Shown: positions 21,360 to 25,639 of the stretch, one piece after another
Layout of the letters: each line of letters starts with the position of its first letter
Numbering within the stretch: the first letter of the stretch is position 1
DNA from: Escherichia coli
GTDB taxonomy: Bacteria; Pseudomonadota; Gammaproteobacteria; Enterobacterales; Enterobacteriaceae
Length of the DNA: 64,000 nucleotides
Reading direction: 5' to 3' (one strand)
NCBI RefSeq assembly: GCF_013122565.1
Contig: NZ_CP053258.1
The notes under the pieces: model-generated
The model's input: the letters and a program-made list of their open reading frames with translations, nothing else
What the model was told of the DNA's origin: nothing
Database searches by the model: none
Position numbers and translations under genes: made by a program

Positions 21360-21863
21360 ATGTCACAAACCGTTCATTTCCAGGGCAACCCGGTTACAGT
21401 CGCCAACTCCATCCCGCAGACGGGTAGCAAAGCGCAGACTTTTACTCTCGTGGCAAAAGATCTGTCTGACGTCACCCTCGGTCAGTTTGCGGGTAAACGC
21501 AAAGTGCTGAACATTTTCCCGAGTATTGATACCGGTGTTTGCGCCGCATCAGTACGTAAGTTTAACCAACTGGCAACCGAGATCGACAACACCGTTGTGC
21601 TGTGTATCTCTGCCGATCTGCCGTTCGCCCAGTCTCGTTTCTGCGGCGCAGAAGGTCTGAACAACGTTATCACCCTCTCCACTTTCCGTAACGCTGAATT
21701 TCTGCAAGCCTACGGTGTGGCAATTGCTGATGGCCCACTGAAAGGTCTGGCAGCGCGTGCCGTTGTGGTTATTGATGAAAATGACAACGTGATTTTCAGC
21801 CAGCTGGTGGATGAAATCACCACCGAGCCGGATTACGAAGCAGCTCTGGCTGTACTGCGCTAA
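21360..21863 (+). CDS. tpx: Thiol peroxidase Tpx (167 aa)
   Basis: Peroxidatic cysteine in the SIDTGVC context. Matches remembered Tpx, except that the C-terminus reads ...ALAVLR* here and I recall ...ALAVLKA* in K-12. Confidence 0.95.
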
Positions 21864-21870
21864 ACAACTG

Positions 21871-21910
21871 TGCCGTTCACTGAATCACCACCGGTGAACG
21901 GCAGTTTTTT
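21871..21910 (+). terminator. Rho-independent terminator of tpx
   Basis: TGCCGTTCAC-(13 nt)-GTGAACGGCA hairpin followed by T6. Confidence 0.75.
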
Positions 21911-22017
21911 GATCTACCAGTCCCACTATTTTCCAGAGTTCCTGCCACTATTCCCCCTAACCGTTGTGCATTAAGATTGCTCTTTGCCAATATTGGCCCA
22001 GCGGAGTGATGACTATT

Positions 22018-24060
22018 ATGGATGATAAACAAATTACGGTCTGGCTTAAACACAATTGCTGTTCAACGGACATTCCTGCCATTGCCGAGGCACTAACGAA
22101 CCATGCAGAATGGCTTTTAGAGCTAGCGCCAGATCCTATTGAACAAGGTAGTTCATGTTTACCGCCGACAGCTGCAGCCGGTATTTTTCTTGGCGCAGCG
22201 GCGATGGTTCACTGCGGCGAGGCTAGTGGTGCAGAAACCTGGCTCGAAGCAGCCATTACTGATTACCATTTCTTTAATCCAAATGGATATAGTTCATGGA
22301 GAGGCAGTACGCCTGTTTTTACAGCATTATCGCGTTACCCGGCATTAAGAATGGTGTTATTTAACGCCGCTTGCGCAATGGAAGACTGGAATAAAGCATC
22401 CGCTGTTCTTGAATCGCTTTTCCATGCCAGCGATGTCCCGGAAGATAACCCTGTCGCCCCAAATTTTACCCCTTATGCGCTGAAAGCGTTTATCGCGGAT
22501 TACCACCCGTTAGGACCAGCTCATTATGATGAAACCTGGTTGCTGGCAAAACAAGCGTGGTTAATTAATGCGAGCGTTCTGGATGAGCGAACCTGCAATA
22601 CCTGGAAGCAATATACCCGCCACTTGCGCCATTTGATCCACAATGCACAGTTTGCCGATGCGCTCTCTTTTGTACGCAGTAAAAAAGAACCGTTAAATCA
22701 TATCCATACCTACTCAGACTTTTATCTGTATGCGATTGGTTTATTTTCTTATACTGGTCAGCTAAATGAAGCGCTGACCTGGATAAAACAGTTAATCCAC
22801 AACAATGATGGTCATTTCTGTGATCTTTTCGTTTCAACTGGCAAAGAGCGCCGAATAAAGCCTGAACTTAGTACCTTGCTGAATAATCTCTTGCACAGCG
22901 CAGAGTTTCAGGCGTTGCAGGATAAATATCTCACCGTCGGACATGATGTTGTGCATTCTGGTCCCTTCATGTCAGTTTATGAAAAGGTTCTTGGCGGAAA
23001 GTCCCGAAAGCGCTGCGCGATTAGTCGAAAATTAATCTCGCCCGGCGAAGCGGTTTATGAATATCGTCAGCTGGATAGTGTGGCATATATTGCAGCGAAA
23101 GCGGCCTTTCAGGCATCTGCGCTAAATAATATCGCCCTCCGGCATACAAATGATAGTTATCAGTGGCAGGATTTTGCCGCCCAATGGCCTCGTCGGGGTG
23201 CGCTTTCTCACCCGGATATTGCCCGTTATATGTTTGAGCGCCAGAAAGGGAAATGTTTTGATGCCGCAGAGTTTATTCAACTGATTGCCGAACCGTTTGT
23301 CTTTCCGATGCGTTTCAGATGGGTTGCCGGGTTGTCCTTTGAATTACATCAGTACCCGGATGCCTATTTCGTAAATGACAATATGGCGGGTGAATTTGTT
23401 AATCTCTGCTGGATGGCTATAAAATGCGGACATGCTGGCGACATTTTTAAACAACTGGCGAAGGAGTCGCATGACGTTGCCGACCCTATTTACGCTATGC
23501 TCGCCACGTTTGACCGCGCTGATTGCCGCAGCGCTGCCGCCGCGCACTTTGGACGACCGGAGCTTGCGGAAATAATGGCGCTGGCTTTCAGTTCGAGGTT
23601 ATCGCTCGACAGCGTCCTTACCATCGCTGAGTTTGGTAAAAATCAGCCGCGCTTTTCACATGCGTTGGCAACGGCCCTCCTGCGTTACAACCTGCACATC
23701 TACTCAAACTATATGCCGCAGGTTAACTGGTTCCTTCAGGGGCTGGAACACTATGCTTTGGCAAAAGGCGGTCAACTTTTAAATTTCTTTGTGCATATTC
23801 CAGAACAAATTCCCGTTCTGGCGACCATGCTGGAACATGGCGTATTAGTGCGTGGGATCGGTGAAGGTGCCTATGATGGTTATGATAATTCAGCAAATTC
23901 ATTTCATCATGCCGCCGTGATGCACTGCCTCACGCACGCGCCGGAAAAAGTTCGCTACTGGATGGAAACACCCTGGATTCAGAACTATTTAGTGAATGCG
24001 CCGCTGCGTCAAACGGCGCGCCATGTGGAAGCCTGGCATAAAAAGTTTGGCATCAAATGA
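22018..24060 (+). CDS. Hypothetical protein of about 680 aa with no family I recognise; predicted soluble and alpha-helical. Alternative starts are 22009 (ATG) and 21964 (TTG, track).
   Basis: Uninterrupted 2.1 kb ORF. GGAG at 22003-22006 precedes the ATG codons at 22009 and 22018. I saw no signal peptide, TM segment, Walker A or nuclease motif. By eye it is slightly more AT-rich than its flanks (about 46-50% GC in hand-counted samples). It is absent from my memory of the K-12 tpx-tyrR interval. Confidence 0.8.
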   Translation: MDDKQITVWLKHNCCSTDIPAIAEALTNHAEWLLELAPDPIEQGSSCLPPTAAAGIFLGAAAMVHCGEASGAETWLEAAITDYHFFNPNGYSSWRGSTPVFTALSRYPALRMVLFNAACAMEDWNKASAVLESLFHASDVPEDNPVAPNFTPYALKAFIADYHPLGPAHYDETWLLAKQAWLINASVLDERTCNTWKQYTRHLRHLIHNAQFADALSFVRSKKEPLNHIHTYSDFYLYAIGLFSYTGQLNEALTWIKQLIHNNDGHFCDLFVSTGKERRIKPELSTLLNNLLHSAEFQALQDKYLTVGHDVVHSGPFMSVYEKVLGGKSRKRCAISRKLISPGEAVYEYRQLDSVAYIAAKAAFQASALNNIALRHTNDSYQWQDFAAQWPRRGALSHPDIARYMFERQKGKCFDAAEFIQLIAEPFVFPMRFRWVAGLSFELHQYPDAYFVNDNMAGEFVNLCWMAIKCGHAGDIFKQLAKESHDVADPIYAMLATFDRADCRSAAAAHFGRPELAEIMALAFSSRLSLDSVLTIAEFGKNQPRFSHALATALLRYNLHIYSNYMPQVNWFLQGLEHYALAKGGQLLNFFVHIPEQIPVLATMLEHGVLVRGIGEGAYDGYDNSANSFHHAAVMHCLTHAPEKVRYWMETPWIQNYLVNAPLRQTARHVEAWHKKFGIK

Positions 24061-24097
24061 ACGTTGCCGCTGCGCCTGAACGGCGCAGCCAGCACAA

Positions 24098-25639
24098 TCA
24101 CTCTTCGCTTTTCTTCTGGTTTAAGCCATATTCCCGCAACTTATTGGCAATCGCGGTATGTGAAACACCGAGACGTTTTGCCAGTTTGCGCGTGCTGGGA
24201 TAATTGCGATAAAGCTGAGTTAATACCGAGCGTTCAAAACGGCTGGTAATTTCGTCCAGCGAACCTTCCATCGCATCTTCGCCCACGGCTACCGTTGCGG
24301 CGTCATAATCAGGCAACAAAATATCCTGAGGACGCAGCTCATAACCGTCCAGTTGTGTCAGTGCGCGATAGATAGCGTTCTTTAACTGCCGCACATTTCC
24401 CGGCCACGCATAACGCGTAAGTACAGTATTCAGGTCAGCGGCCAGTTTCGGACGCGGCACGCCCTGCTCGTCGGCAAAGCGGGCGACGAACAGCTCAGTT
24501 AACGGCATGATGTCCTGCGGACAGTCACGTAGCGGTGGCAGATTGAGCGTCAACACGTTCAGACGATAATAGAGATCTTCACGGAACATGCCTTTTTGCA
24601 CCAGTTCGACCAGATTTTTCTGCGTAGCGCAAATCACCCGCACATCGACATGCACCTCATGGTCTTCGCCAACCCGACGGAAAGTGCCATCATTAAGGAA
24701 ACGCAGTAATTTCGCCTGCATCCGTGGTGACATTTCCCCTATTTCATCCAACAGCACCGAACCACCGTTCGCCTGCTCAAAGAATCCTTTCTTCCCTTCC
24801 GGAGCATGACCAAACAGTTCACTCTCGACCGCATCTTCCGGTATAGACGCACAGTTCAGCGCCAGGTAAGGTTTGCCCGCTCTGGGGCTTGCCTGATGGC
24901 AGGCGTAGGCAAAGAGATCTTTACCTGTACCTGTGTCACCCGTAATCAGCAGCGGCGCGCTTAGCATCGCCAGTTTCTGCGCCTGTTCGACAACGTGCTT
25001 CATTTTCGGGCTGACGGCGACAATTTGACTGAAGGCGCTGACGTCCTGGGCGGCGACATTTTGCAACTGGCGGCCCATACGAATCGTTGATCGCAACATC
25101 ACCACCGCACCGGTCAGGACGTGTTGAGCATTTTCATCCTGAAGATAAACAGGCGTAATCTCCATCAGGAAATTCTGCCCATTAATAACGACATGCTCGT
25201 TATGCGAATCTTGCGGTTCGCTTTCCAGCCAACGTAAAAAATTAAAGCCGTTAATCAATTGTGCGGCGGTATGGTTGCGCAGGCGATCCAATTTTTGCCC
25301 AAAAAGCTGACAGCTCGCCGGGTTCGCCATATCCACTTTGCTTTTCATATCGACAGAGAGCACAGGTTCGGGCAACGCCTCCAGTAACGCGCTCAACGCC
25401 AGATGCTCACGTTCGGAAGGCATCCACGGGACAGTACGCACATCGGTAACACCTGCAATACGGCGTATTTCGGCCATCAGACTGCTGAAACTCTCAAACT
25501 CCAGTTCAGCAAAATTGAGGTAGATTCGCCCAATGGGATCAATCTCAATACCGCGTAAATCAATGCCTCTTAGCACGAGTAGATCGAGTAATTCGCGGGT
25601 CAGACCGAGTCGGTCTTCACAAAAGACTTCCAGACGCAT
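24098..25639 (-). CDS. tyrR: Aromatic amino-acid regulator TyrR (513 aa)
   Basis: ACT/PAS domains, sigma54-type AAA+ core (GDTGTGKD, GAFTGA-less variant) and a C-terminal HTH. Matches remembered TyrR. Confidence 0.96.
   Translation of the reverse strand: MRLEVFCEDRLGLTRELLDLLVLRGIDLRGIEIDPIGRIYLNFAELEFESFSSLMAEIRRIAGVTDVRTVPWMPSEREHLALSALLEALPEPVLSVDMKSKVDMANPASCQLFGQKLDRLRNHTAAQLINGFNFLRWLESEPQDSHNEHVVINGQNFLMEITPVYLQDENAQHVLTGAVVMLRSTIRMGRQLQNVAAQDVSAFSQIVAVSPKMKHVVEQAQKLAMLSAPLLITGDTGTGKDLFAYACHQASPRAGKPYLALNCASIPEDAVESELFGHAPEGKKGFFEQANGGSVLLDEIGEMSPRMQAKLLRFLNDGTFRRVGEDHEVHVDVRVICATQKNLVELVQKGMFREDLYYRLNVLTLNLPPLRDCPQDIMPLTELFVARFADEQGVPRPKLAADLNTVLTRYAWPGNVRQLKNAIYRALTQLDGYELRPQDILLPDYDAATVAVGEDAMEGSLDEITSRFERSVLTQLYRNYPSTRKLAKRLGVSHTAIANKLREYGLNQKKSEE

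Follow-up and report, generated by a model that had tools for sequence, protein, structure and literature searches.

What is the gene that separates tpx from tyrR in a small minority of Escherichia coli chromosomes, and what might its product do? The question is raised by a stretch of 64,000 nucleotides from E. coli contig NZ_CP053258.1 (hereafter the window, with positions numbered from its first nucleotide), in which the interval between these two core genes is filled by a single long open reading frame (ORF) encoding a protein of 680 aa. The original prediction, made from the nucleotide sequence alone, had described a strain-variable single-gene insertion. The computational analysis presented here starts from what can be observed directly: a presence/absence polymorphism, a narrow and patchily distributed protein family, its modelled fold, purifying selection, frequent decay, and neighbourhoods that recur among relatives. 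The best-supported explanation is that the gene encodes a cytoplasmic protein of a new family, which would provide orphan immunity against an interbacterial toxin. We place the probability of this reading at about 0.45, a little below an even chance.

The occupied junction is rare. Megablast of positions 21864–24097 against 5,426 complete E. coli genomes found it in 32 (0.6%), in every case on the chromosome and between tpx and tyrR. A 231-bp query across the K-12/B-type junction (coverage ≥80%) found the empty junction in 5,382. Together these make up the 5,414 genomes that hold the locus, and the site therefore has two states. In the empty allele tpx and tyrR are separated by a spacer of 43 bp containing one hairpin, in agreement with the short spacer of K-12.

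Both flanking genes had been thought to be perturbed at their 3′ ends, with breakpoints lying at the gene ends, and this is borne out by alignment of the junctions. On the left, identity to the empty E. coli B allele ends after tpx codon 166 (gene position 498, window position 21857); the residues AVL are followed by a terminal R in the occupied allele and by a terminal KA in the empty allele. On the right, identity with the empty E. coli B allele falls to 77% over the final 26 bp of tyrR (24100–24125), compared with ~99% for the remaining flanks, and TyrR ends with LNQKKSEE in the window. The foreign-looking tail of tyrR implies that the donor already had the gene beside tyrR, and from the alignment we infer that the block came in by homologous recombination via tpx and tyrR from a diverged enterobacterial donor. 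The relative P0002 does not identify this donor, being present on short contigs that lack tpx or tyrR flanks.

There is no tRNA gene in the window and no direct repeat flanking the block, which contains a single ORF. At the occupied locus in related genomes no transposase or integrase is annotated other than in secondary insertions of IS600 (an insertion sequence, IS) within the gene. This agrees with the lack of mobility genes and repeats first remarked upon, and the idea of a mobile element (IS, transposon or integrative island) was rejected on the absence of tRNA, direct repeats, integrase and transposase.

The intact E. coli alleles fall into two groups, with 96–97.6% and ~94% nucleotide identity to the window. 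The pairwise ratio of nonsynonymous to synonymous substitution rates (dN/dS) among them is 0.28–0.46, with dS up to 0.15. These values indicate that selection on the gene is purifying but relaxed, and that its alleles have diverged more deeply than the flanks. At least 8 of the 32 carriers have an inactivated copy, with a 1-bp insertion near codon 88 (equivalent to window position 22280) in four and IS600 in mid-gene in another four. The carriers of the codon-88 insertion are two Okinawan strains from bovine faeces, a CDC isolate of human origin and an isolate from cattle; those of IS600 are four CDC isolates (three human, one with host unrecorded), one of which has an extra transposase fragment. 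Carriage by 0.6% of genomes, selection that is purifying but relaxed, and the frequency of inactivated copies are in keeping with an accessory gene of conditional use. It is not ubiquitous in E. coli, its dN/dS is not close to 1, and its product has no homology to a characterised family (see below), so that the original prediction stands on all three points.

Protein family and predicted fold

No match to the 680-aa protein was found in Pfam, NCBIfam, PADLOC, PHROGs or the sequences of the PDB, in keeping with the earlier view that it cannot be assigned to a described family. The best Pfam match is to the tetratricopeptide repeat (TPR) profile TPR_19, which falls below threshold (E = 0.069, 13.9 bits against a cut-off of 25). 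None of the 5,027 models of PADLOC-DB v2 is matched at E ≤ 10, and there are no homologues among 50,697 phage records or in PHROGs. The literature searched contained nothing on a gene between tpx and tyrR, and no mention of the orphan gene was found there.

A word-indexed search of 5.8 billion proteins returned eight clusters, comprising one from E. coli (90% identity) and seven at 49–59% identity from Salmonella enterica and other assemblies. An exhaustive HMMER search of 1.84 billion representatives, using a profile built from these proteins, gave 120 cluster representatives, 48 of them with E ≤ 1e-30; a protein search with a 44-sequence alignment as the query returned close relatives only. 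The family ranges over the Enterobacteriaceae, Alphaproteobacteria, Bacteroidota and Chloroflexota. Full-length forms (~680–720 aa) occur in the Enterobacteriaceae and the Alphaproteobacteria, the latter comprising Aliirhizobium, Roseomonas, Azorhizobium, Reyranella, Rhizobium, Methylobacterium and a Sinorhizobium plasmid; there is a single plasmid-borne match, and this is rhizobial. Short forms (480–540 aa) are without the first ~190 residues, and are found in Bacteroidota (Rapidithrix, Dyadobacter and Candidatus Rikenella), a metagenome-assembled genome (MAG) of the Chloroflexota, and metagenomes. Two members, P0065 and P0068, have ankyrin repeats in place of the N-terminal TPR-like region, and among ten distant family members there is no Pfam domain except for the ankyrin repeats on two. 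Judged from these searches, the 680-aa protein is a member of a previously undescribed family.

The structure predicted by AlphaFold2 from the 44-sequence alignment has a mean local confidence (pLDDT) of 88.9 and a predicted template modelling score (pTM) of 0.90. A model made with nine close sequences only was poor (pLDDT 59) and was set aside. The chain is predicted to form helical hairpins over residues 1–305, a small β module at 317–360, and then a mostly helical domain from 361 to 680; the model also contains a few short strands. In the model the hairpins are stacked as an antiparallel TPR-like solenoid, and likeness to TPR is limited to this N-terminal part. The protein had been pictured as all-α and possibly TPR- or HEAT-like; the modelled solenoid upholds the TPR-like part of that description, but, given the β module and short strands of the model, the protein is not all-α. 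When the family profile was compared with PDB sequences only designer PPR/TPR repeats were matched (PPR with E = 9e-12, at profile positions 109–179). Fold searches likewise gave generic TPR similarity only, and among the matches returned the C-terminal domain has no solved or viral structural relative.

The β module carries the signature of the family, LGGKxRKRCxxSxKxIxPGExVxRxR, in which C333, P342 and G343 are invariant across the long forms. The best conserved motifs of the C-terminal domain are DPIYAMLATFDR, RYNLHLYSNYxPxxNW, GQLLYFFIH and YDxYxN. Residues conserved throughout the family are mostly G, P, W and Y, together with one C, and no conserved catalytic constellation is seen in the family alignment. 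The missing catalytic or NTPase motifs and the predicted solenoid fold favour a role in binding. An RNase of the HEPN type was rejected; the element R504-x5-H510 is conserved in the long forms, but the histidine is not kept in the short forms, and there is no HEPN structure among the listed fold-search matches.

Genomic neighbours and the possible role of the protein

The commonest recognisable neighbour of the family is TsiV/DUF3396, found at four independent loci (two in Salmonella, one in an alphaproteobacterial MAG and one on the Sinorhizobium plasmid). A Salmonella homologue that is 55% identical to the E. coli protein (P0006, 688 aa) is encoded between yegQ (Peptidase_U32) and a gene for a ~700-aa DUF4034 protein (loci L003–7), on an AT-rich islet that also contains a gene for TsiV (PF11876) and the remains of IS elements, IS1 among them. 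Another Salmonella contig (L017, 1932–6073) has two intact family paralogues in tandem, each with 49% identity to the type of the other, and TsiV comes after them. In the MAG contig (L026, 3314–9531) there are three cassettes of apparently frameshifted Tox-PAAR-like ORFs, each with TsiV/DUF3396 behind it, and the family gene begins just 2 nt past the stop codon of the third TsiV. On plasmid pBSY16_2 of Sinorhizobium sp. RAC02 the family gene is surrounded by two SMI1/KNR4 genes, two DUF1963 genes and one DUF3396 gene, and in a Rhizobiales contig (L028) DUF1963 is located upstream of it.

Further details of these loci may be added. In L003 the segment 2271–14983 holds TsiV, fragments of IS4, ISAs1 and IS1, several AT-rich ORFs without Pfam match, and the 688-aa family member; this yegQ islet is unlike either variant described in PMC7400221, and may be a third. 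The L026 array resembles a decaying effector-immunity array of TseV/TsiV type in an uncultured alphaproteobacterium. In L028 (3908–7187) and on pBSY16_2 (L050, 8698–11907) a gene for a major facilitator superfamily (MFS) transporter lies directly 3′ of the family gene. The L028 contig also bears a MobA/MobL relaxase, and the family gene and the MFS transporter gene may travel together as a pair on conjugative elements.

Other immunity-associated genes are found elsewhere. In Klebsiella sp. MISC125 and related contigs the gene follows hrpA, and downstream of it are Tli4_C, a gene for an ankyrin protein and a number of small ORFs that are paralogous. A 900-aa member (L046) is part of a same-strand array with DKNYY and DUF1203 genes, with SUKH_6/SMI1_KNR4 directly downstream. 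In L038 a pretoxin-HINT ORF (PF07591, E = 4.8e-17) with a truncated toxin tip is found 179 bp upstream of a short-form member, and in L040 the family gene adjoins a PIN toxin-antitoxin pair. When 128 neighbour ORFs of 11 loci were scanned blind with Pfam, DUF1963 (4) and TsiV (3) were the commonest families and Tox-PAAR-like (2) came next, among housekeeping singletons; an NCBIfam scan of ten neighbour ORFs gave no match. Members of the family are found within polyimmunity or orphan-immunity arrays, with TsiV, Tli4_C, Ank, SUKH_6/SMI1_KNR4 and DUF1963 as neighbours, and at the yegQ islet locus.

Tandem and split copies also occur. In L010–L012 (3305–7484) one copy is split into ORFs of 358 and 344 aa and is followed by an intact copy of 676 aa. 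The array at a locus of Rikenella type (L047–L049, 6391–11029) is made up of one copy of 493 aa, a 'copy and a half' of 717 aa, and a C-terminal half of 306 aa. Patchy strain distribution, paralogue expansion and frequent decay are all seen in this family.

An immunity function is suggested by several features taken together. The family keeps company with immunity genes and toxin remnants in unrelated lineages, and tandem diverged or split paralogues (L017, L010–12 and L047–49) are a pattern typical of immunity arrays. In E. coli, in L013 and in several Alphaproteobacteria the gene stands alone; a lone immunity gene is tolerable, and a lone toxin is not. The architecture suggests binding, not catalysis, and the Salmonella homologue is placed at the yegQ locus of putative orphan-immunity islets. 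On this basis the 77-kDa helical-repeat protein would bind and neutralise a toxin acting in the cytoplasm, delivered through a competitor's type VI secretion system (T6SS) or other polymorphic-toxin system. The TPR-like array and the conserved C-terminal domain of the model would form the toxin-binding surface, and the E. coli host would not itself encode the cognate toxin beside the gene. The gene directly upstream in the window is tpx, not a toxin. A role in defence, competition or immunity had been raised at the outset from the genomic context. This idea gains comparative support from the relatives in T6SS and polymorphic-toxin immunity arrays; no known anti-phage defence model was matched.

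A number of observations weigh against an immunity function. Uninformative solitary insertions, with housekeeping genes on either side, make up more than half of the contexts examined; these sites include tpx-tyrR in E. coli, malM-ubiC (L013), a position after minCDE in Rhizobium oryziradicis, and others in Azorhizobium, Reyranella and Rapidithrix. No intact recognisable toxin domain is found directly upstream in the relatives' loci examined, where only remnants are present (L038 and L026). A length of 680 aa is large for an immunity protein, and such good conservation of the C-terminal domain from phylum to phylum is not usual among immunity proteins, which evolve fast. The interval from the strong tpx terminator to the start codon at 22018 contains no consensus σ70 promoter. 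Ankyrin-fused members beside an RCC1-repeat protein hint at another role, perhaps host-directed, and association in variable islands can mirror shared integration hotspots rather than shared function. Concerning the ankyrin-fused members, the gene for P0065 (L042, 5845–10142), on a contig numbered 271045 in a whole-genome shotgun assembly, comes immediately behind that for an RCC1/WD40-like repeat protein of 675 aa. To find two eukaryote-like repeat proteins paired in this way is a hint that the bacterium is associated with a host, and possibly that the domain is put to another use.

Some of these same points would suit an accessory gene with another cellular function, such as a scaffold, chaperone or regulator, that merely shares islands with immunity genes and is drifting to loss in E. 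coli. The solitary members, the cross-phylum conservation of the C-terminal domain and the missing promoter could all be understood in this way, as could the generic nature of the TPR-like fold and the inactivation of a quarter of the E. coli copies. Such an explanation is unlikely, if by no means negligible. Adjacency to TsiV, Tli4_C, SUKH, DUF1963 or pretoxin remnants is repeated in at least 8 independent loci of different classes, which integration hotspots alone hardly explain; moreover tandem paralogue arrays are unusual for scaffolds and regulators, and purifying selection persists. Rather than a passive immunity protein, the family might represent the first of a novel type of single-protein module for competition or defence. 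This would combine a swappable N-terminal recognition array (TPR-like, ankyrin or absent) with the C-terminal domain that lacks a structural relative, and would sense or disarm incoming foreign proteins, for example effectors of the T6SS or proteins of phage, through an undescribed mechanism. We regard this as distinctly improbable.

Sporadic carriage, a site between convergent core genes and rapid turnover are also what might be expected of a single-gene defence protein, acting against phage or mobile elements and housed in a small hotspot, and the PIN toxin-antitoxin pair of L040 would be in keeping with this. Yet the searches of PADLOC, PHROGs and phage records described above were all negative, the protein has no nuclease, NTPase, Sir2, TIR or other effector domain and no conserved catalytic motif, and the neighbours of its relatives are immunity families against interbacterial toxins, not defence systems. 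This makes anti-phage defence very unlikely. Least probable of all is that the protein acts as a secreted effector or toxin in its own right, or as a T6SS adaptor or chaperone for one, with the ankyrin-fused members possibly aimed at a eukaryotic host. TPR-containing adaptors exist, the protein is large, and members occur in T6SS-related islands and as ankyrin fusions, one beside the RCC1-repeat protein. However, the protein lacks a signal peptide, a catalytic motif and any trafficking domain of the PAAR, VgrG, Rhs, MIX, FIX or LXG type, and vgrG, hcp and paar genes are not adjacent, unlike the situation for usual adaptors. In addition, a small downstream immunity gene is absent in E. coli and at the other solitary sites, and tandem full-length paralogues without interleaved immunity genes would be self-toxic.

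If the protein does function in immunity, the family would be new and structurally distinct among immunity proteins against interbacterial toxins. The tpx-tyrR junction would then be a small, clean presence/absence polymorphism possibly affecting survival against T6SS-armed gut Enterobacteriaceae. The reading would also aid annotation of ~120 clusters of 'hypothetical protein' in Salmonella, Klebsiella, rhizobia and Bacteroidota, including the gene of the yegQ islet, and the family could be used as a lead to the cognate toxin. Were the immunity function wrong, there would remain a conserved domain without a detected structural relative, which is a reasonable target for structural and functional study and no major surprise.

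Sequence features of the interval

The coordinates of the locus are collected in Table 1. As had been read from the sequence, an ORF with its own Shine-Dalgarno-like element lies after the tpx terminator and before a GC-rich hairpin, and both hairpins are predicted to fold. The mechanical call for the ORF is 21964..24060 on the + strand, with TTG at 21964 as first codon. The start was assigned to the ATG at 22018 (MDDKQ...), which is the start used by the Prokaryotic Genome Annotation Pipeline (PGAP) in related genomes and the methionine from which all the homologues align. PGAP labels the gene 'hypothetical protein' in these genomes. The encoded protein has a mass of 76.8 kDa and a pI of 6.4, and H (5.0%), W, Y, F and C are over-represented in it. 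It contains no Walker A motif, no CxxC and no transmembrane segment (maximum KD19 = 1.52); the composition and hydropathy thus agree with what had first been noted of the protein. The GC content of the gene is 0.43–0.51, compared with ~0.53 in the flanks.

Table 1. Features of the occupied tpx-tyrR locus, in window coordinates
Feature	Position	Strand	Remarks
tpx, thiol peroxidase, flanking core gene	21360..21863	+	Last two codons and stop replaced in the occupied allele
Allele-specific block, 2,242 bp	21858..24099		Takes the place of 53 bp in the K-12/B-type allele (tpx tail, spacer, tyrR stop codon); from junction alignment
tpx intrinsic terminator	21871..21911	+	12-bp stem, 9-nt loop, UUUUUU tail; occupied allele only
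GGAG, Shine-Dalgarno-like	22003..22006	+	11 nt 5′ of ATG 22018; putative, read from sequence
Coding sequence, 680-aa orphan protein	22018..24060	+	Putative orphan immunity protein of a new family
Residues 1–190, TPR-like helical array (N-terminal)	22018..22587	+	
Residues 191–305, TPR/PPR-like helical repeats	22588..22932	+	Present in every family member
Residues 317–360, small β module	22966..23097	+	Family signature
Residues 361–680, conserved C-terminal α-domain	23098..24057	+	Motifs, fold searches
GC hairpin GCTGCGCC-tgaac-GGCGCAGC	24069..24088		Between the ORF stop and the tyrR stop
tyrR, flanking core gene	24098..25639	-	

The terminator hairpin of tpx (21871–21903 with its U-tract) has a calculated stability of -19.9 kcal/mol (z about -3.6). 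For the GCTGCGCC/GGCGCAGC hairpin the calculated values are -19.7 (+ strand) and -24.5 kcal/mol (- strand), and there is a U-tract on neither strand. An imperfect 12-nt inverted repeat, CTGTGCCGTTCA (21868–21879) and TGAACGGCGCAG (24077–24088), is 11/12 complementary; its arms are 10–20 bp from each end of the block, each within one terminal hairpin. About nine such 12-nt pairs are expected by chance in a region of 2.8 kb, and it is the placement at both ends that is striking. The repeat could be a coincidence of two terminators, or the remnant of a terminal repeat.

Elsewhere in the window, positions 1–20300 are ordinary K-12-like core, in which nothing unusual was noticed. This region contains dbpA, zntB, a GGDEF/PAS diguanylate cyclase gene, abgR-abgA-abgB-abgT, fnr, uspE, a gene for an MscS-like channel, mppA and mpaA.

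Comparison with known systems

Immunity proteins built as α-solenoids (Imm families with HEAT, TPR and ankyrin repeats), and polyimmunity loci of polymorphic toxin systems, were reportedly described by Zhang, Iyer, Aravind and co-workers in 2011–2012. The present family is like these in its helical-repeat binding architecture, in sharing arrays on one strand with genes for SUKH/SMI1_KNR4, DUF1963 and ankyrin proteins, and in its sporadic spread. It differs in having no match to Pfam Imm, HEAT or Ank, and in its predicted additional β module and C-terminal domain without known structural relative.

The yegQ locus of Salmonella harbours putative orphan-immunity islets for T6SS and contact-dependent inhibition (CDI), namely SAIDI-1 and the 'Paratyphi C islet' (Barretto & Fowler 2020, PMC7400221). 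P0006 is encoded at the same locus, and the shared logic is that of orphan immunity genes without effectors. By contrast, the E. coli gene is a single-gene block at tpx-tyrR, outside any islet. In that study (PMC7400221) no function is given to any ~690-aa protein, and among the genes listed there the TPR-annotated SPC1576 is at most a candidate member of the present family.

TsiV/DUF3396 is an experimentally validated immunity family, directed against the TseV VRR-Nuc effectors of T6SS (Hespanhol et al. 2022, PMC9635880). Both families are cytoplasmic (a predicted location for the present one), and tandem paralogues and orphans are found in both. The orphan family differs in being twice as large and mostly α-helical, and in having no adjacent intact TseV-like effector specifically paired with it. 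Homology between the two was considered and rejected, there being no Pfam match and a probability of 0.13% in an hhalign comparison with a 6-sequence alignment of TsiV.

Orphan immunity arrays left by displacement of effectors are described for Vibrio cholerae by Kirchberger et al. (2017, PMC5361080). In these, effector-less immunity genes are kept at the 3′ end of effector-immunity clusters, and L026 is similar in this respect. The E. coli site differs from the arrays of that account, comprising one gene between two core genes with no adjacent T6SS cluster or array. Set beside these systems, the gene between tpx and tyrR is a real, rare and uncharacterised accessory gene, and most probably belongs to a new family among the orphan interbacterial immunity genes.

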